In this document: one piece after another, positions 25,136 through 44,294 of the stretch
How positions within the stretch are numbered: position 1 is the first letter of the stretch
Layout of the letters: each line of letters opens with the position of its first letter
Source of the DNA: an uncultured virus (IMG/VR IMGVR_UViG_3300023117_001979)
Lineage: Duplodnaviria; Heunggongvirae; Uroviricota; Caudoviricetes
IMG/VR virus record: IMGVR_UViG_3300023117_001979
Length of the DNA stretch: 64,000 nt
Reading direction: 5' to 3' (one strand)
The notes under the pieces: model-generated
Told to the model about the DNA's origin: nothing
Database searches by the model: none
The model's input: only the letters and a program-made list of their open reading frames with translations
Program-made: the position numbers and the translations under genes

Positions 25136-28100
25136 CGTTTTCCTATCTCTAGGTCTTTACCTGCGGTAATTGCTTCAACCATTCCATCTAGGTTGTCGAT
25201 AGTACCCATAATTGGGTGAACGCGTAGTGACTTTCCTGGGTCTTCTCCACCTATTCCACCTAGTAGTGAAGTAGAGTTAGCGACCATGTGTCCACTCTTT
25301 CCTAAGCCTGAAAGGTAACCTGTACTGCCCATATTATCAATCAAAGCATCAATGTAGCGAATGTCTAAGTCACCTAGCCCGGATTTACTATTCATCTGCT
25401 GGTTAAAAATTTCTTTAATACCCGCTAGAGCGGCTTCGAGACCAAAAGAATGAGCAATCCAAAAGGGGTCATTACACACGGTTAGGTACTCATCATAGTA
25501 CTCGCCAATTAACTCATATGCGTTCTCCATCATTGGGTTTGTTTTACCTGGCTTTGGCTTAGCGGGTCCTTTAATTACAATAGACCAACGCTCAGGACCA
25601 CCTGTTGGGTGAGCACCATGCTCACTAAATGCTCTTCCTCCGTTTATTAGGCCATGAATTTGATACTTGCCTAGTGACTCTTTCAATACAAGTAGGTATG
25701 AATCAATATCTAAGTATTCAGGAGTACCATGCGTTCTAACTCTTAGGCCCCCTTCTATTTCATTTACTGAAAACACTGGGCTATGACTGCTACCTTTGTA
25801 AGTCAAGTACTCTTTAACGAATTCCAAGTCCACTTCAAAGGTGTTTACTACTTCCATATCGAATACAATATCTATGGCTCGCTCATCAGATAGATACCTA
25901 AACACAGTCGCTATGTCATCTATGTAAAGTGTCGAACAGAAGTTAGCTAGCTTCTTAGCGTAATATTCATCATTGTATTCTTCTTTCAAAAAGTACTGCG
26001 TCACTGGTTGTTGAATGGCGGAGCGTGACAAATCTAGAATCTGAATAATACGGTCTGTTGTGGGCACTGTTCCTTTACCACCACCGTGAAACGCCCTAAG
26101 CCCAGCTTGTGTTACTGGTTCACCAACATTTGCAGCTCCTGTTGCACCAATCATTTCACCAGCGCGAGCTTTGCTTTCATTGTAATACTCGTAAGCGCGA
26201 GCAAAGTATTCAGCAGGGTTTTCAATTTCTCGCGCTTCGAATTCGGGGTCAATTTTTTCGCGCAGCCTTGACGAAATATTGAGGGGCAATCGTCCTAGCT
26301 TGGGAGTATTTTTGTACAGTGTTCCATCTTGACATGTGTCACATTCATCAAACAGTGTAATTCCATGCCTACACAGCTGTGACAAAAAGTGTGGCTGAAG
26401 TGAAAGTGAAAGTCCGTCTGAGTTATCGGGTCCTCGCGCATGGAATGGTTGAATCCCATCTTCACCAACTTGTAGCGACAAAACCTTGCCCAATCGCATA
26501 TTTACCAAATAGCCTCTATCGTCAATCATCAAGTTTTCAGATGCGCGCTTAAGTCGATGCTCAAGATAGCCCGACTTTTGAATCGCGCCCATTGATGATT
26601 CCATCGCGACGCGGCGGCCAGCGACAGACGCAAGGAAGTATTGTTCAGGAGAAAACCCAGTAGCATAAGAGTCCGGATTAAAGCCAAAAGCTTCTCCTGA
26701 GTAATCACCTTCTTTGAAGTGTGGCAGTAATCGACCTACCTTATTACCACTCATCAACCGGTTTCCACCTACTCTCACTTGCCCATATGCCCCTGACATT
26801 TGCTGAATGTTCAAATCACTAGCACGGGCCCCTGAAACAACTGCAATAGCCATTTGGTTTGCTGTACCTTGCAGCTCTTTGGTAAGTTTGATAATTTCAT
26901 CATCAAAGTCATTAGTGATATTTGCTACTTGCAATTCCATCCATGCAAGCGGGTCGTAAGTAAGCCAATGTCGGGAGTTTTCGGTGAAATAGTCATCAGG
27001 TAGGTTCTCTAGAGTCCTGTTAAAGAAAGCCTCAGTTATAACCCTAATTTTTTCATTCGCTTCGTCATAAAGTTGCTTCTTTTTCTCAATAAACTCAGGA
27101 GCGCTGAGCGATACATCCTCGATACCAATAGTATATCCGACATACAAATGAGCGGCGAAGAATAGACGATTTATGTGGTCAATGAAATCTGCTAGCATTC
27201 TAATGCCCAGCTCGTAATTAAAGTGATAAACAAAGGCAGCTCCTAGCACCATTGACCCGTTTTTGACACCCTTTGCATCAAGAGTACCATAGAGAAGCTT
27301 GCCGTTTTCTATTCTTGCTTCTGCTCCAGTTTTGTCTTTCCAAACACAATTAATTCCTTCGGGAATGAACATAGACACTACGGACTTGCCAGTGTAAAAC
27401 TTCTTGTAGTCAGGTTCGGGTAATGACTTGATGTAACTGAGGGTTCCTTCGTCATCTCTAGTGTACACTAGTCCGAGCATTTCAATGAGAGCCTTCTTCG
27501 AGAAGTAAACATACCCGTCTTTGTCGTAGCCGATTCCCCCTACTTTGTTGTAAGTACCATACGGCCCCTTGAACGACTTTTTGTCATCGTCTTCAAGCCG
27601 TTGATAGTCATTGTAAGAGATTTCTATTTCGTTGCCCTTCTTATCCTTGCCCCGATATACCAACTTGCTCTTGTTAGGGAAAGTAAGCAAGTAGGCACCT
27701 GATGTTTCGTCTTGGTCAGAGGCAATAGTAGGCCTACCATAGCGAGAGTGAATAATTTGCTTATTTACATCTAGAATATCTTTTGCTTCTTGGATAGCTT
27801 CGGGTGACTGTGGCACAAAGCAACGCATAGTATCGCCATCGTAGTCTGCGTTAAACGGCACACAAATAGTAGGGTTGAAACTAAATGCATGTTGTTTGAG
27901 CGGAACCACCTTGCCTGCCATTACATTCTGACGATGAAGAGCAGGGGCGCGGGTAAAAAGAATAATGTCGTGCTTTCTTAGCCCTCTATGAACAATATCG
28001 CCAATTTTGAGAGTGTCTGCTAAAATGGTGCGGAGGCTCTTTCCATACTCGTATCGATACTCTCGACGCGCCTGTTTGATTTCTTTTTCTTTACCTGCCT

Positions 28101-30111
28101 GGTCATCCCTACCACGATACTTGGCATTAATTCCTCTTAGAATCTCTTGATACCATACATTTTGTGCTTCAGGGTTTACCTGCCTCCCCAAAGAATCCAC
28201 TTCGAATGGGTCATAACGACTATTGGTTTCTTGTAATAGGCTAATTTTTCCTTTGCGAGCGCTCATCTTTTCAATATACTTGGCACCCCCAAAGTAGTTT
28301 TCAAAATCCCAACTATCGAGAGGTATTATTCCTTTTTTATCAGGTGGACAACCTTTCTTAACTGCTTCTCGCAAATCTTCGATATTTTCCTTTGTGACCC
28401 GCTCAGCAACAGTCATGCGAATACATGCTCCCATAGGAACACCGACTTCGTCTATTCTAAGCGAAGGGTTAGGAGTGATTACAGAATACATAGTATGCTC
28501 AGTGACTTTGGACTGGTTAATTCTTCGGATGTGGTTTTTCTTCTCCCCCGCTGGCTTAATGCGGTCATAAACGCCTTCTAGTGCTTCAGTTACTAGTCCA
28601 CTCCCGCCAAACTTTTGCTTTACAGCAGGTGTGCCAAACGGGCTTTGTGAAGTAAGAGCCTGAGTGCAGGCCTTGAACAAAGTACTCTCGCTACGAGCGA
28701 ATTTGGCTTGGTCCTCATACATGTCCAGGAGCTTCTGATTCACTCTTACAATGTTGATATACAGCTTGTCTAAGTCATTCATTTCTAAAGCACCATTAGG
28801 AGTTTCTTGTGGTGGGCGAACAGTGTTAGGTGCAATTGGAAATACATCCCAAAACAAGTAACTTGGGTGTGAGCGAGGTGCTCCTGTTAATTTGTCAACT
28901 TCAGTATTGAAGCTCAAAGCTAGAGCATGGTCGTTGGGGATTTTCTTCAAAGACTGGTAAACTACATCATATCGGTATACTTCTTTTCTTGGGAATTCAT
29001 CTTTTGCTCGTTCACCAGGCTTAGGAAAAAATTCTGCAGGCCGCCCAAATCCATATTGCATCTTAAACATGAGAATAGGGCTCTTTTCATCACAGTGCGG
29101 GCAGTGATTTACTTTCGTACTTAGGGGCGTCTTAACTGGGCCACCTTGGGCGATTTGATATGGCCCCAGGTCTCTTTTTGCTTCTCTGTAATAGTATTGG
29201 TAAGTTTCAGCAATAGACTTCCAAATAATGGCTGAGCCTTCCGGGCTAGTCATTTTGTTTTCATACATGACTTTCTTTGCTTGAGCAATTAATGGCTCTA
29301 AGTACTCGTCAGGCAAGACAACCTTGTGGCAATTTCGACATGTATATTTGAGAGTCTTTACTAAAGGCGAAGAATCAATATCACCGGTCAAGTAAAGGTA
29401 ATTAGGGACTGGGACTGCTAGCTTTATTCTTCCAAAGTGCCCTGGGCAGGAGTATTCCTTTGCCCCTTCTATGTTTGCAGTATGTCCACATGTGTAACAA
29501 GCATTACGCCCATGACTTCCAAGTCTTAAATCAGCTACCCCACCATGAATTGGTGCAGGTATGTCAGGAATCATCGTTTTACTTTGGCGCGGGGTTTCGT
29601 ATACTTCAGCATGGCGGATAACTCGGTCTCCACTTAGTAGCATAATTTCTTCAGGGCTCATCATATGATGATAGATTGCCCCTACTGCTTTTGATTCTTC
29701 ATGTAAGGTAGTGTTTGGATAAACTAGAAATCGAGCAGAAATTGGTCCTTCAATTACATAGCCTTCAAAATCAGTTTCAATCTGAACCCGGTCTGACACA
29801 TCTAGAATCTCAGTATATAGCCAATCTTCAGGTTCCGGGTCTCCGTTAAGGTAACCAGCTGTATCTTCAAAGGGCTTATTTGCTATTTTGCAGATAATTA
29901 GCGGCCCTACTTTACTTCGTAAGTTAGCGGCGTTTGGCGAAAGACGATACCACCGATATGCTTCACCTGAAGTCCTAGGAACCCATCGGATTGTGTCAAG
30001 ATTAAATTGAATGTATTTTTGGTTGTCTATCTCTTCTATTTCGTCTTTGCTAAAGAACCAATAAAACTCCTTAACTAGAGGAATTTCATTAGTGGTGTCT
30101 TGAATTACCAA
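25105..30111 (-). CDS. rpo1: DNA-directed RNA polymerase largest subunit (fused Rpo1N+Rpo1C / Rpb1-like)
   Basis: Clamp Zn sites CYTC...CPGHFG and CRNC...CPHC; RAPALHRQN; catalytic PFNADYDGD; SGARAS..NIQQM; bridge helix ...KSGYLEHRL; trigger loop GEPVTQAGLRAFHGGG. Confidence 0.95.
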   Translation of the reverse strand: MVIQDTTNEIPLVKEFYWFFSKDEIEEIDNQKYIQFNLDTIRWVPRTSGEAYRWYRLSPNAANLRSKVGPLIICKIANKPFEDTAGYLNGDPEPEDWLYTEILDVSDRVQIETDFEGYVIEGPISARFLVYPNTTLHEESKAVGAIYHHMMSPEEIMLLSGDRVIRHAEVYETPRQSKTMIPDIPAPIHGGVADLRLGSHGRNACYTCGHTANIEGAKEYSCPGHFGRIKLAVPVPNYLYLTGDIDSSPLVKTLKYTCRNCHKVVLPDEYLEPLIAQAKKVMYENKMTSPEGSAIIWKSIAETYQYYYREAKRDLGPYQIAQGGPVKTPLSTKVNHCPHCDEKSPILMFKMQYGFGRPAEFFPKPGERAKDEFPRKEVYRYDVVYQSLKKIPNDHALALSFNTEVDKLTGAPRSHPSYLFWDVFPIAPNTVRPPQETPNGALEMNDLDKLYINIVRVNQKLLDMYEDQAKFARSESTLFKACTQALTSQSPFGTPAVKQKFGGSGLVTEALEGVYDRIKPAGEKKNHIRRINQSKVTEHTMYSVITPNPSLRIDEVGVPMGACIRMTVAERVTKENIEDLREAVKKGCPPDKKGIIPLDSWDFENYFGGAKYIEKMSARKGKISLLQETNSRYDPFEVDSLGRQVNPEAQNVWYQEILRGINAKYRGRDDQAGKEKEIKQARREYRYEYGKSLRTILADTLKIGDIVHRGLRKHDIILFTRAPALHRQNVMAGKVVPLKQHAFSFNPTICVPFNADYDGDTMRCFVPQSPEAIQEAKDILDVNKQIIHSRYGRPTIASDQDETSGAYLLTFPNKSKLVYRGKDKKGNEIEISYNDYQRLEDDDKKSFKGPYGTYNKVGGIGYDKDGYVYFSKKALIEMLGLVYTRDDEGTLSYIKSLPEPDYKKFYTGKSVVSMFIPEGINCVWKDKTGAEARIENGKLLYGTLDAKGVKNGSMVLGAAFVYHFNYELGIRMLADFIDHINRLFFAAHLYVGYTIGIEDVSLSAPEFIEKKKQLYDEANEKIRVITEAFFNRTLENLPDDYFTENSRHWLTYDPLAWMELQVANITNDFDDEIIKLTKELQGTANQMAIAVVSGARASDLNIQQMSGAYGQVRVGGNRLMSGNKVGRLLPHFKEGDYSGEAFGFNPDSYATGFSPEQYFLASVAGRRVAMESSMGAIQKSGYLEHRLKRASENLMIDDRGYLVNMRLGKVLSLQVGEDGIQPFHARGPDNSDGLSLSLQPHFLSQLCRHGITLFDECDTCQDGTLYKNTPKLGRLPLNISSRLREKIDPEFEAREIENPAEYFARAYEYYNESKARAGEMIGATGAANVGEPVTQAGLRAFHGGGKGTVPTTDRIIQILDLSRSAIQQPVTQYFLKEEYNDEYYAKKLANFCSTLYIDDIATVFRYLSDERAIDIVFDMEVVNTFEVDLEFVKEYLTYKGSSHSPVFSVNEIEGGLRVRTHGTPEYLDIDSYLLVLKESLGKYQIHGLINGGRAFSEHGAHPTGGPERWSIVIKGPAKPKPGKTNPMMENAYELIGEYYDEYLTVCNDPFWIAHSFGLEAALAGIKEIFNQQMNSKSGLGDLDIRYIDALIDNMGSTGYLSGLGKSGHMVANSTSLLGGIGGEDPGKSLRVHPIMGTIDNLDGMVEAITAGKDLEIGKRYAERKSSRE

Positions 30112-30112
30112 A

Positions 30113-30550
30113 TCAACCCCTCGCTGCTGTATATGCTAGCCAATCCGCCATTTCATTTAACTCCGTGCCGACATGTGCCTTTACCCATTGGTACTGAGGC
30201 ACTCCATTTAGCTTATCTTCTAGCTTTCTTATTCTTGCTATTGCTTTAACTAAGTCGGGCTGCTTGATATTATAGTAGTCAGAAAGACCTTCAACTACCA
30301 TTTTAGAGTCACTGATGATTGTTATATGGACACTAGGGCCTAGATTTCTGGCTACTAAGTCCTCTAAAGCCAATTCGACTGCTAGGAATTCCGCCATATT
30401 ATTGGTAGTCACGCCGACATACTCTCCGTGTAGGTGAAGAATATTGCCAGTGATTTTTTCGACAATGACATAGCCAGCTCCGCATTCTCCTTTGCTATCA
30501 CGGTCACTGTCTTTGACGCAACTGCCGTCGGTCCAAACTTCATACTCCAT
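30113..30550 (-). CDS. rnhA: ribonuclease HI
   Basis: TDGSC, TNNMAE, SDSKMV, WVKAH, NEMADWLA. Confidence 0.93.
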   Translation of the reverse strand: MEYEVWTDGSCVKDSDRDSKGECGAGYVIVEKITGNILHLHGEYVGVTTNNMAEFLAVELALEDLVARNLGPSVHITIISDSKMVVEGLSDYYNIKQPDLVKAIARIRKLEDKLNGVPQYQWVKAHVGTELNEMADWLAYTAARG

Positions 30551-30817
30551 TCAAACACCCTTTATTACACGATACTTGACCTTTGTACGGGCTTCTTCTC
30601 TATCGCTATCTTCGGGGCTAAACTTACTTCGGACAACGGTTATCTTTACTACTGAGTCAATCGGCGTTTCTTCACCTTTCATTCGTAAGTGACTAAGCGC
30701 CGCGTCTTCATACATTAGGGCTGGCAGCTCTTCAATTTTAATTGAAAGAGCTTTCAAAACAGCATCTGCTTCTATGGGCGAAAGAACCTGGTGGTCGGGC
30801 ATCAAGTAGTGCATCAA
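30551..30817 (-). CDS. rpoH: RNA polymerase subunit H (Rpo5/Rpb5 C-terminal domain)
   Basis: HYLMPDHQVLS..E...L..L.I..EELP.L...D.A...VVKI...S...YRVI. Confidence 0.88.
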   Translation of the reverse strand: MMHYLMPDHQVLSPIEADAVLKALSIKIEELPALMYEDAALSHLRMKGEETPIDSVVKITVVRSKFSPEDSDREEARTKVKYRVIKGV

Positions 30818-31057
30818 CTAAGCGCAGGTACTTCCTCACCATGAATGTACTGCTCAATCTGCCCTATTTCATGACCAACTACTTTGGCACGATAGACAAT
30901 AAAAAGCGTTCCTAGGAAAATAAGAATATCACTGAAGACAAAACCAACTAGAATTGTCAATGACAAGTACAAAAAGCCCAAAATTGCTGCAACAACGAGA
31001 ATACGCTGACGAGACTTTAGGTCGTCTAACTCATAATGAATAAAGCTGGTATTGAAA

Positions 31058-31537
31058 TCACCAGTCTTCATCATTATCCCAGTCCCAGTCATCGTCGTCG
31101 TCGTCATCATCGTCGTCGTCATCGCTTTCTTCTTCGTCATCATCGAGACCGGCAAGAAGTCCATCTAAGTCATCGTCGTCATCGTCGTCGTCATCTGACA
31201 AAATGATAGCCTTTGCTTTCTTTGGCTTGTCTTCGCCAAGCTCTTCCCAATCAGGAATATTGTCATAGTCAAAGTCATCTTTCTCAGGAATCTTAAGCTC
31301 AGGACGCTTTTTCTTACCTTTAGACATAGCGGCTTGAACCATAGATGGCTTAGATTCTTCTCCATCCTCTTCATCTTCGGGCTCATCGAACTCGATGGCA
31401 CTTAGATTGAGGTCACTATTCTTTTTTAGAGCAAGAGTTGGTTCAACCCAGCTTTCTAGCTTTTTCATCGCTGATTCGTCATTCATAGCTTCAACTTCAA
31501 TAGTCAAGTAGTAGGTGAAAACCTGCTTTTCTGCCAT
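31058..31537 (-). CDS. protein with very acidic (poly-Asp) C-terminal tail
   Basis: 159 aa, two long Asp runs near the C-terminus. Confidence 0.7.
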   Translation of the reverse strand: MAEKQVFTYYLTIEVEAMNDESAMKKLESWVEPTLALKKNSDLNLSAIEFDEPEDEEDGEESKPSMVQAAMSKGKKKRPELKIPEKDDFDYDNIPDWEELGEDKPKKAKAIILSDDDDDDDDDLDGLLAGLDDDEEESDDDDDDDDDDDDWDWDNDEDW

Positions 31538-31584
31538 GAGTATGTATCAGCTTCATTCTGACCTTAAACCTAAGTATTGGTTTA

Positions 31585-31788
31585 ATGACTATGTATACTT
31601 TCACAAGCCTTATATGCACCGGGAAGATGCACATAGTAATGGGCACCGATGATGCCATGAGTGCTATTAGGGTTCGTAAGTACGATATTGACCGCCTAAA
31701 GCATTTTAAAATTAATAACGAGTCTATTTGGGAGACCTTGGCGAGGATTCTCAATGAATATCATCATAGCCAAGTTAACAAGGAGTAA
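31585..31788 (+). CDS. ribbon-helix-helix DNA-binding protein (start probably internal, MGTDD/MSAIR)
   Basis: SAIRVRKYDIDRLKHFK...ESIWETLARIL resembles archaeal RHH proteins. Confidence 0.6.
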   Translation: MTMYTFTSLICTGKMHIVMGTDDAMSAIRVRKYDIDRLKHFKINNESIWETLARILNEYHHSQVNKE

Positions 31789-31793
31789 TAGAA

Positions 31794-32105
31794 ATGGCAA
31801 AATTTGCGCGAACAGTGTCAAAAATCGAACAATGCTTTAGAGTTTATGAAGACTCCCTGGAAGTGGATGTTCTTTCCTTCCATCAAATTCGTGATTGGTA
31901 TAACGAGCAAACCAAGGATGGAATTACTTCTGCTCGCCTAATTAACCTCCTTCGCAAGCGTCCTCAGTTTGTTTGGCAACATACCGAGCGTAAAATTGGC
32001 TCAAATGAAACATTGACCTTTTGGTCTATGAACAAAGAAGTCAAGCTGCCTAACCCTGCAGATGGTTGGGTGGTTATTGAGCAGGCAGCTCCGCTATCGT
32101 GCTAG
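31794..32105 (+). CDS. putative winged-helix protein
   Basis: LSFHQIRDWYN..TK.G.TS.RLINLLRK.PQF. Confidence 0.6.
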   Translation: MAKFARTVSKIEQCFRVYEDSLEVDVLSFHQIRDWYNEQTKDGITSARLINLLRKRPQFVWQHTERKIGSNETLTFWSMNKEVKLPNPADGWVVIEQAAPLSC

Positions 32106-32135
32106 TAGTACTACCCTAAGAAGCGCTACAATATG
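32105..32135 (+). promoter_or_regulatory. bipartite element copy 1: GTAGTACTAC-N8-GCGCTACAATATG
   Basis: Identical architecture in 4 intergenic copies. Confidence 0.8.
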
Positions 32136-32180
32136 AAGCGAGGGAACTGCCCTCCTTCAAATATATTAGGAGGTAAAAAC

Positions 32181-32357
32181 ATGAATGAAGATTTTGTATT
32201 CGAAGGTGAAACTTACATTATCGTAGACAAAGTTCCGGAAAATGTTCAGCAAATGTGCCGTTATAGCACAGGAAGCGTGGACAACTATTTCATCGGAAAA
32301 AAGATGATTTTCTGGAAGTCTGCCGGTTGGAAGTTTTACACCACAACGAACCTGTGA
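32181..32357 (+). CDS. small hypothetical protein (MNEDF...)
   Basis: AGGAGGT RBS before ATG 32181. Confidence 0.6.
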   Translation: MNEDFVFEGETYIIVDKVPENVQQMCRYSTGSVDNYFIGKKMIFWKSAGWKFYTTTNL

Positions 32358-32439
32358 AATCTAACTCATCAGTTTGAACGCCAGACTAGCCACAAGGAGG
32401 GAGAAAAACCGGCTAGCAAAAGTGCGGTAAGCACAGGAT

Positions 32440-32682
32440 GTGAAGAAAATATCACAAAATGAAAAAACAAACGAAGAAGAGCTAGTTCCCTGTAAGGGGA
32501 TTATCTACATGTCAGTACAAGGCGGAAAGGATTTCTACGACCCATGCCCCCACAACAATAAGGTCCCAGTAGGGACTGAAAACGGGGGCGGAGAAACCTG
32601 TATCGAATGCAGGAAAGAAAACTCCCGTAGCTACATGAGCCGAACCCACATATCTGGCGGACGCCCAGTAGCACCTATTTGA
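32440..32682 (+). CDS. small Cys-containing hypothetical protein
   Basis: 80-aa ORF, C...C...CIEC. Confidence 0.5.
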   Translation: MKKISQNEKTNEEELVPCKGIIYMSVQGGKDFYDPCPHNNKVPVGTENGGGETCIECRKENSRSYMSRTHISGGRPVAPI

Positions 32683-32702
32683 AGGCACAAGAGCTCTTCT
32701 TT

Positions 32703-32779
32703 GTACCACATCCAGGTCACTGACCTGTCCAACCCGCCCCTGTGCGCCAAGGCTCGCAGGGGTGGCCAAGTGCGGTAAG
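32703..32779 (+). ncRNA. conserved three-way-junction RNA motif, copy A
   Basis: Homologous to 36780-36857, with a 10-bp stem of different sequence but the same pairing. Confidence 0.7.
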
Positions 32780-32796
32780 CACAAGCAAATGTCAAG

Positions 32797-32827
32797 GTAG
32801 TACTACCTTGGCGAGCGCTACAATATG
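32797..32827 (+). promoter_or_regulatory. bipartite element copy 2
   Basis: GTAGTACTAC cttggcga GCGCTACAATATG. Confidence 0.8.
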
Positions 32828-33230
32828 GAGCGAGGAGAAGACCTCGTATTCAATTAGGTGAAAAACTTGGATAGAACCCATGCTGTCAAGGAGGTTCTAG
32901 AAGGGATGTACGGAAAGCAGCGAGCATAACCTCGTCGTGAAACCGGTAGGAGGGCTTGTACCTCTGAGGTTGAATTTCCCGCATTCATATAGAATCTTCA
33001 AAGCATCAGTTTAGGGGCTCTTGGGTGAAATAGACCTGGAGCGACCCGTGACCCCGGTCAGAGACTATGCGGTTCAACAAACTCAGAATGTGCCACTCAG
33101 CGTAAAACCTGAGTCTGCACAGCCTACGGGCCGAGAAATAGACAAGCGAGTAGCCACGAAGCGTGGGACAAACAGTAGCTAGTTAGCCAATAGGCGATAT
33201 ACAGTTACTGATTGTGAATAGTAAACAACC

Positions 33231-33608
33231 CCCAACGGTGTTCGAGCCGACGGGGTTGGGATGGACTTAGAGTGGATTGCGCCGTAGATTCGGCTTAAAC
33301 TCAATGAAAATCCCGTTACAGAAACAACCAAAGCTGCCCTGAATTCAGTGCAGATGGTTGGAACTTTCCTTGGATGGAAGTACAATGTATGAATGCCGTC
33401 GCCTAAGTGCAGGGCCGCCACTTTCAATGGCCTGCTCAGAACGGATATGATGCTGGAATTGGGGTGAAATCCCAGTTATGAATGCATCTGTGCATGTATG
33501 CCTGACCATGGGGAACGATAGGAGAGGATGTTCACGCAACCTCTCCTATTAGCGAGGTAAAAATCGCCCAAGTCAAAAAAGTTAGCCCAACGGTGTTCGA
33601 GCCGACGG
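33231..33608 (+). repeat. 23-nt direct repeat CCCAACGGTGTTCGAGCCGACGG (33231-33253, 33586-33608)
   Basis: Exact match read from the sequence. Confidence 0.9.
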
Positions 33609-34250
33609 CTGCTTTGGCCTCTGCAACCGGTGAAGCGGACCGGAGGCCCCAAGACTTGGAATTAGGCTGTGGTAGCCAATCTTACATGTGAAAGCTGAGT
33701 CCGAGTAACCAACGGAACAATGAAGCTTTCAAGCAAGAAGCCGAATGCTTGCATTCGGCCTTCACATATCAGGAGGAAACCAAAAATTCTCCTGTATATA
33801 TGGGCACCAGGTGTATTCCTGGTGTACCGGGGGTCAGGTACATGTTTACCATGTCCTGGCTCCCAAGACCATATCAGTGAGTGGTGTAACTGATTGGAAG
33901 GTTGTTGGACAACCTGTATGGTATGCTAGCTTATGCTAGAAGTGCCTCCAACTAGAAGATTAAGTGCATTACGCACACACACAATTTACCACACTCGCCC
34001 GGACTCGATTTATCGAGTCTTTACATTATCTTGAGACTAAAATAGGGCTTAAGCCCGGCGAACCTATCACCGTAAGGATGGTGGGTAAAGTCGCACAGTA
34101 ATTTATTAGCTCTCTTCGGAGAGAAACAGAAATCCAGCTACCAGCCTCACGGCTGAGACTAATATACGCCCACATAAAGGGACCTCACCGGATAGAGCCG
34201 AGGGTCCTGTGGTGCGCGGAAGTTGGATGATAATGTAACTACAAAATATA

Positions 34251-34284
34251 CCAGGGTAGCGTTAAAACTGCCCTGGTTTTTTTT
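34251..34284 (+). terminator. hairpin + T8 terminator-like element
   Basis: CCAGGGTAG-cgttaaaa-CTGCCCTGG then TTTTTTTT. Confidence 0.8.
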
Positions 34285-34292
34285 GTATCAGT

Positions 34293-34301
34293 ATAAGCGT
34301 G
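34293..34301 (+). promoter_or_regulatory. ATAAGCGTG gene-start motif (first of about 27 ATAAG(C)GTG copies to 63946)
   Basis: Recurrent motif at gene starts in the right half of the window. Confidence 0.8.
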
Positions 34302-34526
34302 GACACTGGATTATTCAGGACCAATGTAGGTTTGACCTACTTCCGTCAAGCAAAGATGGAAAAACAACTTACAGACGAGCAGGTGCTTGAGCTGTACACA
34401 TCGATACTTCGTATCGAAGCCAACGCAATCCGCCAAATGGAAGAGATTGCTGGCACTGCCGACCAATGGCGGAAAGACCAGGCTGAGGCTAGTCATGCCT
34501 TGGCAAAACAACTCCGTGACCTCTAG
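34299..34526 (+). CDS. small coiled-coil hypothetical protein
   Basis: GTG start within the ATAAGCGTG motif. Confidence 0.6.
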   Translation: MDTGLFRTNVGLTYFRQAKMEKQLTDEQVLELYTSILRIEANAIRQMEEIAGTADQWRKDQAEASHALAKQLRDL

Positions 34527-34546
34527 TCGCGTGAATAAGTGTATCA

Positions 34547-36763
34547 GTGGAAGGTACTGTTGAGTACCGGAAGCAAAAGGTGAAAAAAATGAAAACCGAA
34601 ACGAAAACCGAAATGAAAACAACTTTGTTTGTTTTGGTCGCCCTGTTTCTGTCCATTGGCTTTGTGCTGATGGGCAGCTTGGGTGACTCAACAATCGAAG
34701 ACCGAACCGCTGACAACGACGAGCAAGTGCGTATCGTGAGTCCCCTCGCTATGCACTGGAGTCGATGGTCCGTCCGCAAGAAAGACGGAAACCAGCAAAA
34801 GAAGGAAGCATGGAGAACGGCCCGCTGCGGCCAATCCAAAACCCTTCTCCACTGGCGACAAGTCATGCTCCCAAGCAAGAACCGTCGCCGTGCTGGTACA
34901 GACCAACAGCTCAACGCTCAGCGTGTGCTGCGTCTTCAATCACCTTTCGATAGCGCTAAGAGGCTCGCTCAAGAGCTTCGTGTTGGCGTCATCGAAAACA
35001 ACGAAGGAATCCAGGAAGTTCTCAACCGAGAAGTCCGAGTGATTCTTGAGACAGAGACACGAGCAATTCGAGACCCGGCGATTCGCCTGGACTACCTGCT
35101 CCATGTCTTCACAACCTACGGGGCTGCGTTAGGTATGGTTTGCCGAGACAAAGGAGACCAAGAAACCCTGACGATTTTGCCTCACCACATCCGGAACGCC
35201 ATCACGAATGGCTGGCAGAACATGCCAAAAGCCGGTAATGCGGAACTGATTGTTAAGAAGTTCAAAAAGGGCCTGGTTACGCCAGGCCTTTACAGCTCTC
35301 TTTACTTGAGAAAGGGCACCCCAGCTCAAATTCTCATTGATAAGATGGTTGACGAACAACTTGACCACTACATTCAGAACAACTCCGTTTCCGAAGAAGA
35401 CCTTCGTGCGCAAGCAAATAAGGCTCTAAAGGAAATGGTTAGCATTCACACCAAGTTTATGAAAGGAGAAGTGGACATTAATTTGTTCCATGAATCCATT
35501 CCTGAGCAATTTAGTGCCCAAGTCTCGGCTTTCCGAGAGAAGGGTAACAACATGAATGCACTCAAAGAGGCAGGTATTGACAGTGAAAAACTTGCTCCGT
35601 ATGCGGAAGAGCTCAAAGCTCTTCAAGCGGAGTTTGTTACTTCATACCTGTCTTGGAAAAGGAGCTCAACCAAGAGCCGCGACGAGCACCACAAGGAGCT
35701 GCGCGCAACTCTTGAAGAGTCACATCTGAGCGAAATGCGTGAAAAGTACCATTCTTGGGAAATTCGCGTCACTCGCAAAGAAGGAAAGAAAGTCTATGTC
35801 ACCATGGAGTGGCATTTGACTCCCATGACACCAACCAAGTCAAGGGGCAAGAAAGGCGCTGAAGAGGTTGTTCCAAACAACCACATTGGTGCCCGATACC
35901 TTTTGGGTCCATCTAATGGAGTCAAAATGCCTCTCGATGTGAAAAGGGGTTATGTGCGCGGTGCAAGCAAGATTGAGAAGCACGGCGGACACCCTTACAC
36001 TGGTGACACCACATCCATGCAACTGATTCGCGCATCTTCCCACAAGGGTGAAGATGGTTACTTCGGGGTGCTTAAAAACCTCCCTCGTAACAAAGTGTTT
36101 CAGATTCAAGCACGGCGTGAAAACTTCAAACAGCTTTACACTATGATGAATGTTGTACTGGGCGCATGCCCGTTCAACCCTTCATGGAAACTTGCTGGCT
36201 TGTATTCAAACCCGAAGCTCGTTGAATCAAACGGGCAAGCGTTTTCTCCTAACCTCACCTCGTTTGAAGTGGGTACGAAGGACAAAAAATCGGGCAAGAA
36301 ATCAGGCCGAAAGAAGCTTGGACCAAATGCAAAGAAGAACCGTAACGCGGTTCGGAAGGCAGCCGAGATTCTTGACCAGCAAGATGAGCTCAATATGGCA
36401 GAAGAGGGATTAATCGACCTTTATCGACCCAACACAGACCTTGCCGAAATTGAAGCTAACCACAACAAGGAATTGCTTCGACTCTGGGAACTCCTTTACA
36501 AGGAAACTGTTACCAAGTTGAGGACACGACTGAAAGCCCAAGGCCTAACCGTCCGCGGCAAGAAAGACGAACTTGTTAAGCGTTTGATGGATGAGTTTGA
36601 GAAGGAACACCACCGTAACCAAGCTCAACGCTGGCTCGACGAAATGGACGCAAAGCACGGTGTCATAATCGAAGACGAAAATGATGATAGCAACGACGAC
36701 AACAACGACGACAGCATCATCTATGACGACGACGATGTGTGGCCTGACCGCTCCGACAACTGA
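34547..36763 (+). CDS. large basic protein with hydrophobic N-terminus and C-terminal SAP domain (start probably ATG 34589)
   Basis: TVTKLRTRLKAQGLTVRGKKDELVKRL is a SAP motif; AGGTGA RBS at 34578; N-terminal TLFVLVALFLSIGFVLM. Confidence 0.75.
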   Translation: MEGTVEYRKQKVKKMKTETKTEMKTTLFVLVALFLSIGFVLMGSLGDSTIEDRTADNDEQVRIVSPLAMHWSRWSVRKKDGNQQKKEAWRTARCGQSKTLLHWRQVMLPSKNRRRAGTDQQLNAQRVLRLQSPFDSAKRLAQELRVGVIENNEGIQEVLNREVRVILETETRAIRDPAIRLDYLLHVFTTYGAALGMVCRDKGDQETLTILPHHIRNAITNGWQNMPKAGNAELIVKKFKKGLVTPGLYSSLYLRKGTPAQILIDKMVDEQLDHYIQNNSVSEEDLRAQANKALKEMVSIHTKFMKGEVDINLFHESIPEQFSAQVSAFREKGNNMNALKEAGIDSEKLAPYAEELKALQAEFVTSYLSWKRSSTKSRDEHHKELRATLEESHLSEMREKYHSWEIRVTRKEGKKVYVTMEWHLTPMTPTKSRGKKGAEEVVPNNHIGARYLLGPSNGVKMPLDVKRGYVRGASKIEKHGGHPYTGDTTSMQLIRASSHKGEDGYFGVLKNLPRNKVFQIQARRENFKQLYTMMNVVLGACPFNPSWKLAGLYSNPKLVESNGQAFSPNLTSFEVGTKDKKSGKKSGRKKLGPNAKKNRNAVRKAAEILDQQDELNMAEEGLIDLYRPNTDLAEIEANHNKELLRLWELLYKETVTKLRTRLKAQGLTVRGKKDELVKRLMDEFEKEHHRNQAQRWLDEMDAKHGVIIEDENDDSNDDNNDDSIIYDDDDVWPDRSDN

Positions 36764-36779
36764 GTTCTGAACGACACAA

Positions 36780-36857
36780 GCACAACTCCCAGCTCACTGA
36801 GCTGTACAACGGGAGCAGGGGCGCCAAGGCTCCCCTGTTCCCCCCTGTGTAGGTAAG
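36780..36857 (+). ncRNA. conserved three-way-junction RNA motif, copy B
   Basis: Homologous to 32703-32779. Confidence 0.7.
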
Positions 36858-36963
36858 TCTCCAAGCCTGCCTAGGTCTTCGACCTGAGGCGAATACATTG
36901 ACCACTAGGTTTCCCCCCTTTGTTGGTCTTTGCTTGGCTTGTCATAAGTGAAATTGTATTAGC

Positions 36964-38721
36964 ATGAAACGAAAATTGTGCCTCTTGATTTTGAGCCTGC
37001 TACTGACCACCCCCTACATTACTGGAGGTGAGAATATTAATGGCTTCGCTGACGACACTGAAATCCCCAATGCGCACACGATGATGAAAGTCCGTGGACG
37101 CAAGAAGTGGAAGACTGTTACTGATGTTGCAAAACAGAAGAAAGCAGTCAACGCAGCTGCGCAACAAGCTTACCTTTCTTCACCCGAAGGCAAGGCTGAG
37201 CTTGCGGCTGCTTCCAAAGGAATTTCTCAGCGCAAGAAGCGCCTTATCTTGAAAGGCGACATTCCGTTTGCCCCGTCTATTGATGACCAACCTACATATT
37301 GGAAAGTCAACTCTTCCCTTCCTCGGAGGATTGATAGCTTCCAAAGTAACATTAGTTGGTTTGCGGGGTTCATTCGGAAAACACTGACAAATGCTGGGCT
37401 CAGTCGACGCCAAGCAAAGAAACTTGTCAAAGAGTATTTCCCAAGCAACCGAGCGATTCGCAAGGAAGCTGGGGAAACTAACAAAACTGCTGACGCACTC
37501 CGATACGAATATACGGTTCGTCAGATAGTACTTCACCGATACTTGAGGAATCATGTCAATGACTGGCGTGTTTCTCAAGTCAAATCTTTTAGAGAACAGC
37601 ACACAAAGGAGTGTGCAAAACTCGAACAACAATTGGTGATGATGGGAGGCTGGGAGTCTCCTGAAGATGTTCGCAAAAGCTATGACCATCGATTAAAGTC
37701 TGCTCTCACCCCAATGGTGAAGTATCAGGCTGGCGTGATGAAAGGCCTACAATTGGAAATGAAACAAATCCGAGAGTGGGCTGAAGTCAAAAATTATGCG
37801 ACCAAAGAAAATGTCCAATTATTGGGCAAAGTCCTAAAACAGTTAGAGGCAATACGCCTTGACCTCGATGTACTGCTTGAAAACGCAGTTAAGAAGAATA
37901 TGAAACTGACTAGGGCACAGGTACTTGCAGCGGCCAATAAAAAGGCAGCTGAAATCGAGCAACTTTGGAAGTCTCGCATTTCTGAAAAAAGAGCATCCAT
38001 CTTGCAAAAGCGAGATGAATACCTTGCGTCTGAAGACTACCGTACTCGAACTACTCTTCACTGGAAGATTAAGGAACACAAGTACACTATGAACGATTTT
38101 GATGATTTCATCAAACAATCACTGCGGATTCCCTATGATATGCTTTGCAATCTAGAGGAAAGCACACCGTGGACAAATTTTGAATCAAGCATAAACTGGA
38201 TAAAAGGTGAGCATGTTCTCACTGGCTTATTTACCAGGGCAGCTGAGTTTGACCTTGTCCACCACCCTGTACTCCTAAATAATGGAGTTACACCTTGGAG
38301 TCTCCGAGAGGCTCTAAGCATCAATGGTACATTCAACCAAAGCCAGCGGTTTATCTCTATTCCGCGTAGTACGGCTGAATTGGAAAAGATGACTTACCCC
38401 GAACTCACCTCATACGCGAAAGAGCGAGGAATCAAAACATGGGTTCGAGAATGGGTAGACGACAAAAGAACGGTTGTGCCAATGCCAGCTGACCAACTGG
38501 TCAGGGCTTGCGCTACGACTTTACACCTCGACTCTCCTAGGGACGGCCAAGTCCTTTACGAGCTAGGTATTCACTACAACGAAGTCTTTTCTGAATCTCA
38601 AATTTTCAAAAACAAGTGGGCTGGAGATGTTTACTCTTTCACTGCCCCTTCGGTTGAAGCCCATGCAAAGACAGTTATGGCTGAGAAGGTTGACCACTTA
38701 CTCAGCGACTTTGACTTCTGA
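36964..38721 (+). CDS. large basic helical protein with signal-like N-terminus and Rho-N/HEH-like motif
   Basis: MKRKLCLLILSLLL...; ELEKMTYPELTSYAKERGIK. Confidence 0.75.
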   Translation: MKRKLCLLILSLLLTTPYITGGENINGFADDTEIPNAHTMMKVRGRKKWKTVTDVAKQKKAVNAAAQQAYLSSPEGKAELAAASKGISQRKKRLILKGDIPFAPSIDDQPTYWKVNSSLPRRIDSFQSNISWFAGFIRKTLTNAGLSRRQAKKLVKEYFPSNRAIRKEAGETNKTADALRYEYTVRQIVLHRYLRNHVNDWRVSQVKSFREQHTKECAKLEQQLVMMGGWESPEDVRKSYDHRLKSALTPMVKYQAGVMKGLQLEMKQIREWAEVKNYATKENVQLLGKVLKQLEAIRLDLDVLLENAVKKNMKLTRAQVLAAANKKAAEIEQLWKSRISEKRASILQKRDEYLASEDYRTRTTLHWKIKEHKYTMNDFDDFIKQSLRIPYDMLCNLEESTPWTNFESSINWIKGEHVLTGLFTRAAEFDLVHHPVLLNNGVTPWSLREALSINGTFNQSQRFISIPRSTAELEKMTYPELTSYAKERGIKTWVREWVDDKRTVVPMPADQLVRACATTLHLDSPRDGQVLYELGIHYNEVFSESQIFKNKWAGDVYSFTAPSVEAHAKTVMAEKVDHLLSDFDF

Positions 38722-38785
38722 GCAAAAAGGGTGTGTTTAAGCTAAATCTCCATTTTCCCCTGGAGCTGCGGCTTGCCGATAAGTC

Positions 38786-39130
38786 ATGGTAAATGATAGC
38801 TTGATAGCGGAAACCAAACCGCTGAAAGAATTTCTGTTAGAGCAGATTAAAGCTAGTGTCCCTACCTACGAAAAAAGAATTCTTGGTTGGGGGGAACTAG
38901 CTACTGGTCTAGCAGTGGTTGTTAAGTTTCAACCACCAAAAAGCGAATTTAGCCTCAGTTCCATTACATCAGGAATTAGAGATGCTAGAGGTAGCTTGCG
39001 CAGTGAGCATACAATTCGAAGTTTGATAAAGTCGATGATGTTTTATCGTCTTATTGTTCAAACTAGCTATGCTAAGGGCGCTACTGCCTACCGTATTAAC
39101 TTTGAAATCCCAGGTGAGCTTTGTGCTTGA
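38786..39130 (+). CDS. putative winged-helix protein
   Basis: FSLSSI...SEHTIRSLIKSM...LIV...AYRIN. Confidence 0.55.
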   Translation: MVNDSLIAETKPLKEFLLEQIKASVPTYEKRILGWGELATGLAVVVKFQPPKSEFSLSSITSGIRDARGSLRSEHTIRSLIKSMMFYRLIVQTSYAKGATAYRINFEIPGELCA

Positions 39131-39371
39131 TAAAATTAAAAATGCCTGGAACAAGGTAATGTCTTCCACCCCTGTGGAAGAAGAGCTAAGCACTAACAAA
39201 GTTGACGATTGCGTTAACCTAGTTTTTGAAATGGCTAAACTCATGCAAATCGACCCGCAGCAAATCGTGGATGCTATGTATGAGCGATTAGAGGTCTTAA
39301 AGATGAAAGAACGATTTGACCCTGATATTGACGCAATTATGATATTGCATGGAGATAACCCCGATGCCTGA
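39054..39371 (+). CDS. hypothetical protein (start probably internal)
   Basis: Fills the gap between neighbours. Confidence 0.5.
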   Translation: MFKLAMLRALLPTVLTLKSQVSFVLDKIKNAWNKVMSSTPVEEELSTNKVDDCVNLVFEMAKLMQIDPQQIVDAMYERLEVLKMKERFDPDIDAIMILHGDNPDA

Positions 39372-39858
39372 TAGAACAGAAGATTTCGAGGCCATCTCTA
39401 ACGACGAGTGGTTTGACACTCATGTTTATCCTAAAATAAATAGGATAAGCCGAAGAGAAGATGGAATGTACTTTGTTGCTATATCCCAGTGTTGGGAAAG
39501 GCACAAGTATAACGATGAGTATGCTGGGCCTGTAAAATTGGCAGCATTTCCAAAAAAGGTTACAACGCCACAAAAATGGTTACCTAACTTCTCACATGCC
39601 GTCCGGTTTTGGCAAACGCTGAAAAATAAACTGGACAGTATCGGAGCTACTAATGCTCGTGTGGATATTCGCTTGTACCTTTCAGGTGCTAGCGGTCCCA
39701 AAGCCGCGTTACTTTACGCAATCGAGGACAATGTTTCTCGACAAGGCCTTCCTTACTTTGAAACTCCTTTCAATTGGGCAATTATTCCCATGGTTTGGAA
39801 TTCAGAAACAAGAAAATACGAGGAAGAGCCGACCATTTATTCTTACCCCAGTAGGTGA
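39349..39858 (+). CDS. hypothetical protein
   Basis: 169-aa ORF. Confidence 0.65.
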   Translation: MEITPMPDRTEDFEAISNDEWFDTHVYPKINRISRREDGMYFVAISQCWERHKYNDEYAGPVKLAAFPKKVTTPQKWLPNFSHAVRFWQTLKNKLDSIGATNARVDIRLYLSGASGPKAALLYAIEDNVSRQGLPYFETPFNWAIIPMVWNSETRKYEEEPTIYSYPSR

Positions 39859-39905
39859 GAGTAATAAGTGAACCGTGAAACGAAGTCACAATTTGGAGGA
39901 ATTTT

Positions 39906-40787
39906 ATGGTAAGAAAGAGACTCTTTCTTCACCCTACCTTTGACTGTTCTTTTGACCATGTTTGCAGGGAAGACTGCTACTTGTTAAACGATAAAACAGC
40001 TGATGAGAAAAAATTTCGCTTGCCTGATGAATACTGGGTTAATATTACTCGGTTAGCAGGCGAAAGTGGGTTTAAGGAGCTATCCTTACCAATTAATCCT
40101 CTTAGGGGCGTCACAGGCGTGAAAGACCCCTTGCACTGGTTGAGATTACTTGCTCCTGTTGCTAAGGAGTTTGAAATGGTAATCAATATAACCACTACTT
40201 TAGATGTTGCTCAAAAAATTGAGGAAACAGATATTGTCGACATTATTGCAATCTCAATTGACGATTATCGTACAGGAAAAGATTGGAATAAGCATGCCAA
40301 AAAGCTTGCAGCGCAAGTGGAAAGGCTACAAGGCTTTGGTATAGAAGTAAACTGTAACCTTAGCTATGACTCAGGTACTCAAATTAGCTTCTTGTTCAAT
40401 CGAGAAACACGAAGAAAATTCCTGGTCGAAACATTTGATTACACTACTGCCCTTTGGCCTAAACCGCTAAAGAAGGCAGGTATCAATACTATTGGAGCAG
40501 CGCGCCTAATTCAAAAAGGGCAGCGCAACGGCTCCGACTATCCTGACCTTATCGGTGAATCCGAAGGTTTCTTGGAAGATTATTGTATGTCCTTTGCGAG
40601 AGGAAATTCGAGTTGCGATGCTGGCTACGGTCAGTTATCTATCGATGCTTTTGGGCGGTTAGCTATCTGCCCTTACTCTCCTCACGGAGTTGATGTATCA
40701 ACACCTGAGAAATTTCAGGACTACCTAGTAAACACACTACCAAAGAACAAGGTAATCGAATCTTGTGATTTGATTGATGTTGAATAG
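39906..40787 (+). CDS. divergent radical-SAM-like protein with Twitch/SPASM-like C-terminus
   Basis: N-terminal CSFDHVCREDC, IAISID, CDAGYGQLSIDAFGRLAICPY. Confidence 0.6.
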   Translation: MVRKRLFLHPTFDCSFDHVCREDCYLLNDKTADEKKFRLPDEYWVNITRLAGESGFKELSLPINPLRGVTGVKDPLHWLRLLAPVAKEFEMVINITTTLDVAQKIEETDIVDIIAISIDDYRTGKDWNKHAKKLAAQVERLQGFGIEVNCNLSYDSGTQISFLFNRETRRKFLVETFDYTTALWPKPLKKAGINTIGAARLIQKGQRNGSDYPDLIGESEGFLEDYCMSFARGNSSCDAGYGQLSIDAFGRLAICPYSPHGVDVSTPEKFQDYLVNTLPKNKVIESCDLIDVE

Positions 40788-40845
40788 GGAAATAAGCGTG
40801 GTTGCTGTCTTGTGAGAATAGAACCGGGTACGCCCGCTCAAAAAG

Positions 40846-41391
40846 ATGCCACAGGACGAGCATAATACGACAAATATAACAGAGAGAACGCTTATTCCAC
40901 TCAAGAATGAGTGCTTTAAGAGAGACATTGAAACTGCTGAGCAACTGCTTTCTAACCAAGGCGAATTGCTCATGCGAGTTTTGCGAGAAAACCGCCCATA
41001 TTGGCGAGAGTGCCCTCACTGCGAGGCCTTTCTTAAGCCACAGCGGGACAAGAAAGTTGCAGACTGCGAGGAGCGAGGTTGGGTCCTACCTGACTTTGCT
41101 GTGCGCGGATATGCATTCCAGCGATTGGACGAGGTAGAGATAGTAGACGACGGAGTTGTCTGCAAGTTTCACCCTGACCATTATTTCGCTACACTTTCTG
41201 ACTTCTCCTCTATTTTTGCACCTAAGGTTGTCACTCCGACGACCGTTTGGGTGGATAGACTAAAGCGACCTGTTATTCAGAAGTCTAGAAACTGCATTGG
41301 TTTGAAGCACCCCCACTGTTCCATCTGTGGAATGTGTCATACTAACGCAAGGTCTCACGACCGTGGGCACCCTGGTACCCGCCGTTACTGA
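40846..41391 (+). CDS. Cys-rich hypothetical protein
   Basis: 181 aa; CPHC, CSIC..CH. Confidence 0.65.
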   Translation: MPQDEHNTTNITERTLIPLKNECFKRDIETAEQLLSNQGELLMRVLRENRPYWRECPHCEAFLKPQRDKKVADCEERGWVLPDFAVRGYAFQRLDEVEIVDDGVVCKFHPDHYFATLSDFSSIFAPKVVTPTTVWVDRLKRPVIQKSRNCIGLKHPHCSICGMCHTNARSHDRGHPGTRRY

Positions 41392-41416
41392 CTTCCCTTC
41401 GAGGACCAATCCTTGA

Positions 41417-41677: not shown

Positions 41678-41802
41678 CCTCAATCCTGGACCGAAGCTTG
41701 ACTGTGGTTTGCCCGCCCACCGTCAATATTTAGGGCACACGACAGGTGCCAGTCCCCGGTACCTGTCTTCTAAGTGAATAAGCGTGTATAAGGTGAAAAA
41801 CC

Positions 41803-42150: not shown

Positions 42151-42175
42151 GTAAATAAGCGTGTATTAGGAAACC

Positions 42176-43445: not shown

Positions 43446-43454
43446 GTGAAATAA

Positions 43455-44261: not shown

Positions 44262-44294
44262 CTGCTTTCCTTAGTTTCTAGGGTAAGTATAAGC

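Follow-up and report, generated by a model that had tools for sequence, protein, structure and literature searches.

Evidence for a new class of large structured non-coding RNA on an element assigned to magrovirus group D

The IMG/VR record IMGVR_UViG_3300023117_001979 of an uncultured virus (64,000 nucleotides (nt) in full length; hereafter the window) carries on its plus strand a unit of ~1.45 kb (32830-34284) with no credible open reading frame (ORF), which raises the question of what this unit encodes. A preliminary description of the DNA had proposed a new class of large structured non-coding RNA (ncRNA), and this proposal is supported by the lack of a coding signal, folding z-scores, covariation including pseudoknots, synteny, contigs from RNA libraries, and the lack of an Rfam match. 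The unit is very probably a discrete, expressed plus-strand non-coding gene of a magrovirus group D element and a member of a new class of large structured ncRNA; taken jointly with this, and held with the same high confidence, the functional part of the RNA is a compact, single-copy core of ~370 nt (33873-34240) that is closed by two long-range helices, contains two pseudoknots and carries GNRA as well as UUCG loops.

An ncRNA class that is both large (>400 nt) and intricately folded is, to our knowledge, rarely discovered, and the few known so far (OLE, GOLLD, ROOL, HEARO and raiA) are bacterial or phage-borne; the RNA described here is the first large structured ncRNA class that we know of on an archaeal mobile element. 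Several known large ncRNAs proved to have unexpected architectures. An RNA that is better conserved than the neighbouring proteins, occurs once per element and is found in metatranscriptomes offers a concrete handle on the biology of the element, and a core of 370 nt is small enough for direct structural and pull-down study without a culture of the host.

Transcription unit and presence in RNA libraries

In the region 32683-34298, every one of the six frames is interrupted by 20-27 stop codons, and the longest plus-strand ORF inside the unit encodes 64 amino acids (aa), with at most 70 aa across the 11 units compared, in agreement with the preliminary description, which had noted no convincing ORF. 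Just one small frame recurs (45 aa, 33964-34101); it has 9, 11 and 9 variable columns of 45 at codon positions 1, 2 and 3, i.e. codon-like conservation was not seen, and it is interrupted by in-frame stops in two of the 11 homologues (L013 and L015). A protein-coding gene or small-protein mRNA was rejected because of the stops in every frame, the absence of a third-position bias and the stops in homologues. An alternative genetic code was rejected as well; reassignment of a single stop codon opens at most 248 codons (on the minus strand), and at most 166 in all other cases.

The unit is preceded by a class-1 promoter-like motif of 31 nt on the plus strand (32797-32827), composed of the palindrome GTAGTACTAC, a spacer and GCGCTACAATATG (GTAGTACTACC-N7-GCGCTACAATATG). 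Four copies of the motif are found in the window (32105, 32797, 45395 and 45929), all on the plus strand, with none expected, and it is located 5' of the core in every related locus with a long enough flank; a promoter-like start had been suggested earlier and is borne out by the motif and its recurrence. At the other end, the predicted hairpin and T8 tract were recovered by a scan as a terminator-like element (34250-34284, plus strand) with a G+C-rich helix of 10 bp. This hairpin is kept in all 11 sequences, with one compensatory pair that is G-C in six and A-U in five of them. Archaeal polymerases terminate at oligo-T. The RNA would be transcribed from a dedicated, element-specific promoter motif and would end at the hairpin and T8 tract.

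Seven metatranscriptomic runs contain 53-99% of the sampled words of the stretch, and four of these were mapped as Logan contigs on 30500-50400, with depths given as per-contig means. Contigs from the RNA libraries cover the unit in all four runs, as a whole in X13 (31898-33960 and 33931-39827) and in parts in the other three; this metatranscriptome check, proposed in the preliminary description, establishes presence in RNA libraries. The summed depths of the bin that holds the core were 115, 849, 422 and 391 in the four runs, and those of the minus-strand genes at 30500-31827 were 0-39 in seven of eight bin-run cells and 105 in the remaining one; a uniform carry-over of DNA is unlikely, to the extent of a weak hint, because the minus-strand genes lie far below the core bin. 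All twelve adapter-tagged contig ends (33680-47587) have, as we read the adapter sequences, the orientation expected for plus-strand RNA in a dUTP-type library. One such end, at 34239 (one contig of X19), lies at the 3' base of helix H8 (see below), just before the terminator hairpin, and may represent a trimmed mature end.

Two further regions of the window without long ORFs were observed. The region 45380-47040 is ORF-free, carries the class-1 motifs at 45395 and 45929 and a hairpin with T-run (~46999-47034), and has the highest RNA contig depths of the 20 kb mapped (X13, 1122 and up to 10507; X18, 2365; X19, 2911), with adapter-tagged ends at 45534 (two runs), 46011 and 47031; its part 45384-45968 is 89-90% identical to L003:21038-21713, and the region probably encodes one or two further abundant ncRNAs. 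The third region (48340-50260, ~1.9 kb) contains no ORF of at least 100 aa, is covered by RNA-library contigs and includes a 43-nt inverted repeat (48402-48444/48496-48538; 91% complementary).

Structure, conservation and architecture of the RNA

Folding of the unit was compared with shuffled sequences, as had been proposed, and is beyond chance: z = -6.79 for the core with terminator (33873-34284; 0 of 100 shuffles as good) and z = -7.04 for the 5' 1000 nt (32830-33829; 0 of 20 shuffles as good). Sliding 300-nt segments of the plus strand starting at 32551-34201 gave z-scores of -2 to -6.5 in 11 of 12 cases and -0.83 in one, compared with mostly -0.3 to -2 in the flanking genes. The reverse strand of the core stretch gave z = -4.13.

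All helices named in the preliminary description were recovered at their positions in the minimum free energy (MFE) fold of 32830-34284, namely those at 33518-33549, CCAAGTC (33568)/GACTTGG (33653), GAAAGCT (33690)/AGCTTTC (33724), 33740-33759, the UUCG hairpin (34110-34123) and the long-range helix TTACATTATC (34021)/GATAATGTAA (34229). Their comparative support is divided: the terminator shows covariation, as do the UUCG hairpin and the long-range helix, whereas the support for the hairpins at 33690 and 33740 is thermodynamic only.

For the core, a structure model was derived with RNAalifold on 11 sequences, supplemented by two helices from a search for stacked covarying columns. The model comprises 118 pairs in 18 helices (16 nested helices and two pseudoknots), and 99.0% of its 1298 cells are standard pairs. 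The conserved core itself (33873-34240, plus strand) holds 15 nested helices and both pseudoknots: H1 (33881/33990), H2 (33892/33982), H3 (33899/33909), H4 (33920/33935), H5 (33964/33973), H7 (34004/34013), H8 (34023/34229), H9 (34032/34089), H10 (34045/34053), H11 (34062/34076, with GUAA loop), H13 (34110/34119, with UUCG loop), H14 (34132/34221), H15 (34144/34151), H16 (34167/34209) and H17 (34180/34198).

Changes on both sides occur in 20 of the 118 pairs (64 cells), compared with 21.9 +/- 3.8 cells for 500 shuffles, none of which attains 64, and 0-8 cells in six slid controls. Compensatory changes are found in five of the eight pairs of H8 (34023-34030 x 34229-34236), which is the long-range helix named above, and in four of the six pairs of the pseudoknot PK-A (34104-34109 x 34159-34164), which occurs as UAUUAG/CUAAUA, UAUCAG/CUGAUA and UAACAU/AUGUUA; they are also found in the pseudoknot PK-B (33995-33999 x 34057-34061; two of five pairs), H7 (two of five), H13 (two of five), H14 (two of eight) and the terminator helix (34250/34268; one of ten). 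Read on the plus strand, 1285 of the 1298 cells pair, compared with 1197 when read as the complement, and 91 are G.U cells; this excess agrees with the asymmetry of the z-scores between the strands. Invariant runs of up to 33 nt are located in predicted single strands of the core.

Relatives were collected via the 738-aa protein that is encoded downstream of the unit (34589-36763, plus strand). Five relatives were found in a large protein collection, their alignment recovered 17 metagenome loci and the window's own contig, and the core was searched for in these loci by blastn and nhmmer with the ORF-free stretch as query. Nine loci carry the last ~420 nt (33873-34292) at 84-92% identity, and the core is present but cut by a contig end in L007 and L018; hence, it occurs in all 11 related loci with at least 900 nt 5' of the 738-aa gene (nine whole, two cut), the other six of the 17 being unscorable with 671 nt or less upstream of this gene. 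A twelfth copy (90% identical) was found in a 36.5-kb contig (L021+L022, G001:C15) of an archaeal metagenome-assembled genome (MAG; 1.2 Mb) in GTDB, and the unit is always located 5' of the same 738-aa gene in the informative loci and in the MAG contig. As this contig is collinear with the window over ~6.3-42.7 kb (90% amino-acid identity of the DNA polymerase PolB; no obvious host genes), it represents a binned copy of the element rather than host chromosome, and it supports the link to the host weakly and is not evidence of integration.

The core is single-copy in each window or locus by profile nhmmer, with minus-strand matches attributable to the palindromic terminator. A BLAST search with the core in 401 genomes sampled from the class of the MAG yielded one genome, the MAG itself, and two core patterns each matched this MAG only among the GTDB species genomes. 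IMG/VR contained no exact match to four DNA patterns, core patterns included, and neither the 738-aa protein nor the element's RNA polymerase had a relative there; there was no blastn match in INPHARED phages, and the GTDB species genomes contained no relative of the 738-aa protein and no match for a 23-nt repeat internal to the unit. The core is restricted to the magrovirus group D element type.

Pairwise identity of the core is 82.4-99.5% (mean 87.8), compared with 21-94% (mean 37) for the neighbouring 738-aa protein and 67-78% for nearby coding DNA; for example, the core of L011 is 98.6% identical to that of L005, and their 738-aa family proteins are 43% identical. Sequence and pairing of the core are under strong purifying selection. 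Recent horizontal spread was rejected as the source of the high identity, since there are differences of up to 17.6% between cores, the clades of the cores broadly track those of the neighbour protein, and the differences are compensatory.

The earlier view of an RNA of ~1.4 kb holds in so far as the whole unit is structured, but evolutionary conservation is confined to the 3' ~370-420 nt and a few upstream modules. Most of the 5' ~1 kb is a lineage-specific expansion built as a mosaic of modules. The length from promoter to terminator ranges from 617 nt (the MAG copy; L019) to 1484 nt (this window, the longest) across the family, because the upstream structured expansion modules evolve fast. 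A conserved pseudoknotted core with lineage-specific expansions of very different length is likewise known from telomerase and RNase P-type RNAs.

The transcript starts with a 5' hairpin in the MFE fold (GCGAGG...CCTCG, 32830-32846, plus strand), and the first ~35-40 nt 3' of the promoter motif are 80-97% alike across units. The lineage-specific 5' extension that follows (32847-33517, plus strand) is similar to other units only in short modules; it includes the first copy of the 23-nt exact repeat (33231-33253, with the second copy at 33586-33608) and a GUGGAUUGCGCC module (~33271-33303) that was recognised by eye in six units (window, L002, L003, L004, L008 and L011). Hairpin H0 with a UCACRCA-type loop (33518-33549, plus strand) was found in nine of 11 units by regular expression and in a tenth, the window, as a variant by eye; its arms differ between units yet stay paired, i.e. 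they covary, and it abuts the core in five loci, lies 111-117 nt upstream in four, and 323 nt upstream in the window. A three-way junction module (33551-33659, plus strand), closed by the CCAAGTC/GACTTGG helix and containing T-loop-like GUGUUCGA hairpins and the second repeat copy, is present in five of 11 units (window, L010, L011, L013 and L015); RNAalifold on these five sequences gave 43 pairs, 12 with compensatory changes, from an alignment that is partly out of register. The junction directly abuts the core in L010, L011, L013 and L015, and is separated from it in the window by a window-specific insert of ~213 nt (33660-33872, plus strand) that is flanked by duplicated CCCAAGAC and whose hairpins (such as 33690/33724 and 33740-33759) are supported by the MFE fold alone. 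The 1.45-kb unit therefore combines the conserved core with a small number of shared modules and with expansions specific to the lineage.

This layout of a variable 5' part and a constant 3' part that ends in a terminator, together with the strong folding of the 5' part itself, is also what would be seen if the conserved 3' domain were a cis-acting, exonuclease-resistant stabiliser or terminator cassette and the variable 5' domain carried a lineage-specific function. We regard this as quite improbable: a segment of ~370 nt that includes two pseudoknots and long single strands without variation is far beyond the needs of stability, and the shortest member (617 nt) keeps the entire core with ~170 nt of 5' sequence, for which reason selection is centred on the core and not on the 5' part.

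Possible roles of the RNA and comparison with known families

A cmscan search of the whole window with Rfam 15 yielded no match at the gathering score; at E<=10, there was no match in 32000-35000, only three unrelated matches (11-16 bits) in 33860-34295, and nothing consistent at the RNA element in five homologous loci. The Rfam check that had been proposed thus gave no family for the unit or the core, and the earlier observation that signatures of group I and group II introns, RNase P and SRP RNA are absent stands. SRP RNA, tmRNA, 6S RNA, group I/II introns and small self-cleaving ribozymes were rejected for want of an Rfam match, and there is no split ORF around the unit. Archaeal RNase P RNA was rejected, as there is no match to RNaseP_arch, and the strings AAAGUC and ACAGAA, which resemble the CR-I and CR-V strands of P4, fall in H9 and flanking H14, which are covariation-supported helices. 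A C/D-box sRNA or K-turn was rejected, as the GUGAUGA...CUGA at 33879-33893 is unconserved (UUAA for CUGA in three of 11 sequences, GUGGUGU for GUGAUGA in two); the only C/D match of cmscan to the core has 11 bits.

GOLLD and ROOL had been named as comparable phage RNAs. The likeness holds for the kind of RNA, i.e. >400 nt, multi-domain, pseudoknotted, non-coding, and located on a mobile or viral element in its own transcription unit, but not for membership, as no match to the covariance models of GOLLD, ROOL, HEARO, OLE and raiA was found at E<=10. GOLLD and ROOL often adjoin tRNA genes in phages or prophages; in contrast, the RNA described here has an archaeal host, no tRNA or tmRNA gene was found by ARAGORN within the 64-kb window, and its conserved core is smaller and has a hypervariable 5' extension. 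Tan1, also of Marine Group II, is structured and highly abundant in marine metatranscriptomes (PMC5069720), but it is chromosomal, 229 nt long and rich in GGGAAAC-like repeats; it differs from the core in length and composition, and no likeness was seen by eye between the core and its sequence in Table S5 of PMC5069720. In the literature covered, with bioRxiv supplements and subscription journals outside its scope, no ncRNA was described on magroviruses or Poseidoniales elements, and no large, intricately folded one on archaeal viruses or plasmids.

As for the role of the RNA, we tentatively favour an action in trans, in which the RNA, abundant and stable, would bind a partner that evolves slowly, although our confidence in this proposal falls short of even. 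The core is at least 82% identical and has invariant junction strands, and proteins of the element go down to 21-40%; the partner should therefore evolve much more slowly than the element's proteins, and would thus be a conserved host machine or the RNA itself. In the proposed mechanism, the invariant junction strands would bind the partner, most plausibly a conserved host machine such as RNA polymerase, the ribosome or tRNA, or an RNA-decay or defence factor, and the RNA would act through titration or as a scaffold, similarly to 6S RNA or the viral VA/EBER RNAs. All of these are abundant structured RNAs, of small genomes or directed at the host, that bind a conserved host machine, which fits an RNA more conserved than the element's proteins; the likeness is a presumed analogy of function, not a demonstrated one of sequence or structure.

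Several points weigh against this account and against the general reading of the locus. Complementarity of the RNA to transcripts of the window reaches at most 11 nt, compared with 11-17 nt (mostly 12-13) in shuffled controls; a base-pairing antisense regulator was rejected on the same grounds, there being no above-chance complementarity to any window transcript. The conservation of the core above its neighbours would also fit catalysis, self-assembly or a role in cis. Helices H1-H3, H5, H10 and H16 are invariant across the alignment, so that the comparison says nothing on them, and only ~4-5 independent lineages stand behind the 11 sequences, so that the counts of covarying cells overstate the number of events. 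The contig depths can neither rank expression nor give starts, ends or levels. The X13 contig 31898-33960 spans the promoter and read-through from upstream is possible; the transcription start and the mature ends, as well as the action in trans and the partner, are what we infer.

A partner that is RNA itself would be at hand if the core were a ribozyme, either self-processing or acting on host tRNA or rRNA, or an RNA-only homo-oligomer like ROOL, GOLLD or OLE, with the 5' modules peripheral; oligomers of GOLLD, ROOL and OLE are reported from cryo-EM (PMC12286853). The compact pseudoknotted fold, the invariant junction strands and the GNRA and UUCG loops suit such a core, as do the T-loop-like hairpins of the junction module and a conservation above that of any nearby protein, which is typical where the partner of an RNA is RNA itself, and the adapter-tagged end at 34239, at the base of the closing helix H8, is a possible processing site. 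However, no Rfam ribozyme model matched at E<=10, there is no conserved self-complementary kissing loop (the UUAA of H10 is UUAU or UUAC in three of 11 sequences), and the end at 34239 comes from one contig of one run; catalysis is putative, and we consider a catalytic or self-assembling core rather unlikely.

A bolder version, which we rate as unlikely, is that the core is an RNA machine, either a ribozyme of a new kind or an assembly made of RNA only or centred on RNA, that the capsid-less element uses for propagation or host takeover. If true, the archaeal domain would have its first large ornate RNA, and the three ORF-free, highly transcribed regions of the element would suggest an RNA-based functional module.

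The host element and its other genes

The preliminary description implied a phage setting, and this part was not borne out: the element is archaeal (Marine Group II) and virus-like or plasmid-like, not a bacteriophage. On the basis of gene content, the window is assigned to the "magrovirus group D" elements, which are associated with Marine Group II archaea. The window encodes a thermosome (chaperonin; 623-2173), a resolvase (18216-19139), the family-B DNA polymerase PolB (22394-25135, in the minus-strand block adjacent to the RNA unit), and an archaeal-type RNA polymerase subunit A of 1668 aa (25105-30111) with Rpb1 domains 1-5, whose top PDB matches are archaeal Rpo1N/A' (E 3e-80), with eukaryotic RPB1 ranking below them and bacterial beta' far lower. 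PolB, thermosome, resolvase and RNA polymerase A are the set listed for magrovirus group D by Philosof et al. 2017, who left open whether these elements are viruses, proviruses, plasmids or other (PMC5434244). Marine Group II archaea rank among the most numerous microbes of the surface ocean, according to two papers (PMC5434244, PMC5069720).

The RNA unit lies at the switch of gene orientation, with an RNase H (30113-30550) as well as PolB in the adjacent minus-strand block and a local minimum of the cumulative GC skew near 31-32 kb. These features recall a replication-origin transcript, i.e. a pre-primer like ColE1 RNA II or the T4 R-loop that is cut by the RNase H of the element at the switch between the divergent blocks. 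The skew minimum, however, coincides with the change of coding strand and is inseparable from it, the conserved terminator at the end of the unit sets the RNA free, no AT-rich element for unwinding is present (the unit region has 49% GC, compared with 43.8% for the window), and a primer would not be expected to be found at a high steady-state level in RNA libraries; an origin transcript is thus very improbable. No reverse transcriptase was found near the RNA unit, where Pfam shows an RNase H domain only.

No capsid, portal or terminase family was matched among the scanned ORFs of the window (Pfam, PHROGs). Group D is likewise described as without a recognisable capsid gene in PMC5434244, PMC11706807 and PMC10160649, and the latter two describe an element that lacks the major capsid protein, may be plasmid-like and shows enrichment in the cellular size fraction. 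A structural or packaging RNA of a transmission apparatus, similar to the phi29 pRNA and working with downstream secreted or membrane proteins, would suit this absence, and the unit is always located 5' of the plus-strand block, the first two genes of which encode proteins with N-terminal hydrophobic segments: the 738-aa protein, with a hydrophobic helix and a C-terminal SAP domain, and a 585-aa protein (36964-38721, plus strand), whose family is 23-34% identical to the window copy; both proteins diverge very fast. Nevertheless, between the RNA and the 738-aa gene there are anywhere from ~6 to ~1600 nt, with inserts that are unrelated to one another, the 738-aa protein goes down to 21% identity and the RNA stays at or above 82%, unlike co-evolving partners, and no fold match gives the 738-aa protein an identity as portal or motor: its AlphaFold2 model (pLDDT 75.3, pTM 0.58) had no PDB match at E<=0.001, and it belongs to no family in NCBIfam or PHROGs. 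We hold a packaging role to be highly improbable. Both the phi29 pRNA and ColE1 RNA II are element-encoded structured RNAs located beside the relevant gene block, with a role in packaging or priming, and neither shows homology to the core.

Other genes of the window were noted in passing. Three regions (57644-58435, 3280-4014 and 15746-17479) include a zinc finger of the GATA type (E 9e-8) and a weak match to the Arf family, which are odd domains for a prokaryotic mobile element, and a GmrSD-type restriction endonuclease on the minus strand. A 103-aa protein without family match (31794-32105, plus strand) is 67-77% identical in four relatives, in each of which its gene is located directly 5' of the first palindrome-bearing class-1 promoter; that this protein binds the GTAGTACTAC palindrome is a speculation. 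The gene for a 293-aa protein (39906-40787, plus strand) is among the best-conserved of the plus-strand block (72-78% nucleotide identity across loci); the protein starts with a Cys cluster (HPTFDCSFDKVCRDDCY in relatives), has no Pfam or NCBIfam family, and is perhaps not a capsid protein but an enzyme of the metal or radical-SAM-like kind.

Two further sequence elements accompany the plus-strand genes. A 51-nt direct repeat (75% identity; 32705-32755 and 36782-36832) is located just past the stop codons of two plus-strand genes, with an adapter-tagged 3' end (36915) after the second copy, and may be a shared 3'-untranslated or terminator element. A ATAAGCGTG-type motif recurs 5' of plus-strand genes (34284-34303, 40791-40818, 41420-41447, 41771-41793, 42148-42170 and 44275-44299) and is a candidate for a second promoter class; the adapter-tagged 5' ends at 34567 and 40821 are located ~30 nt 3' of motifs of this type, as expected for an archaeal TATA-type promoter.

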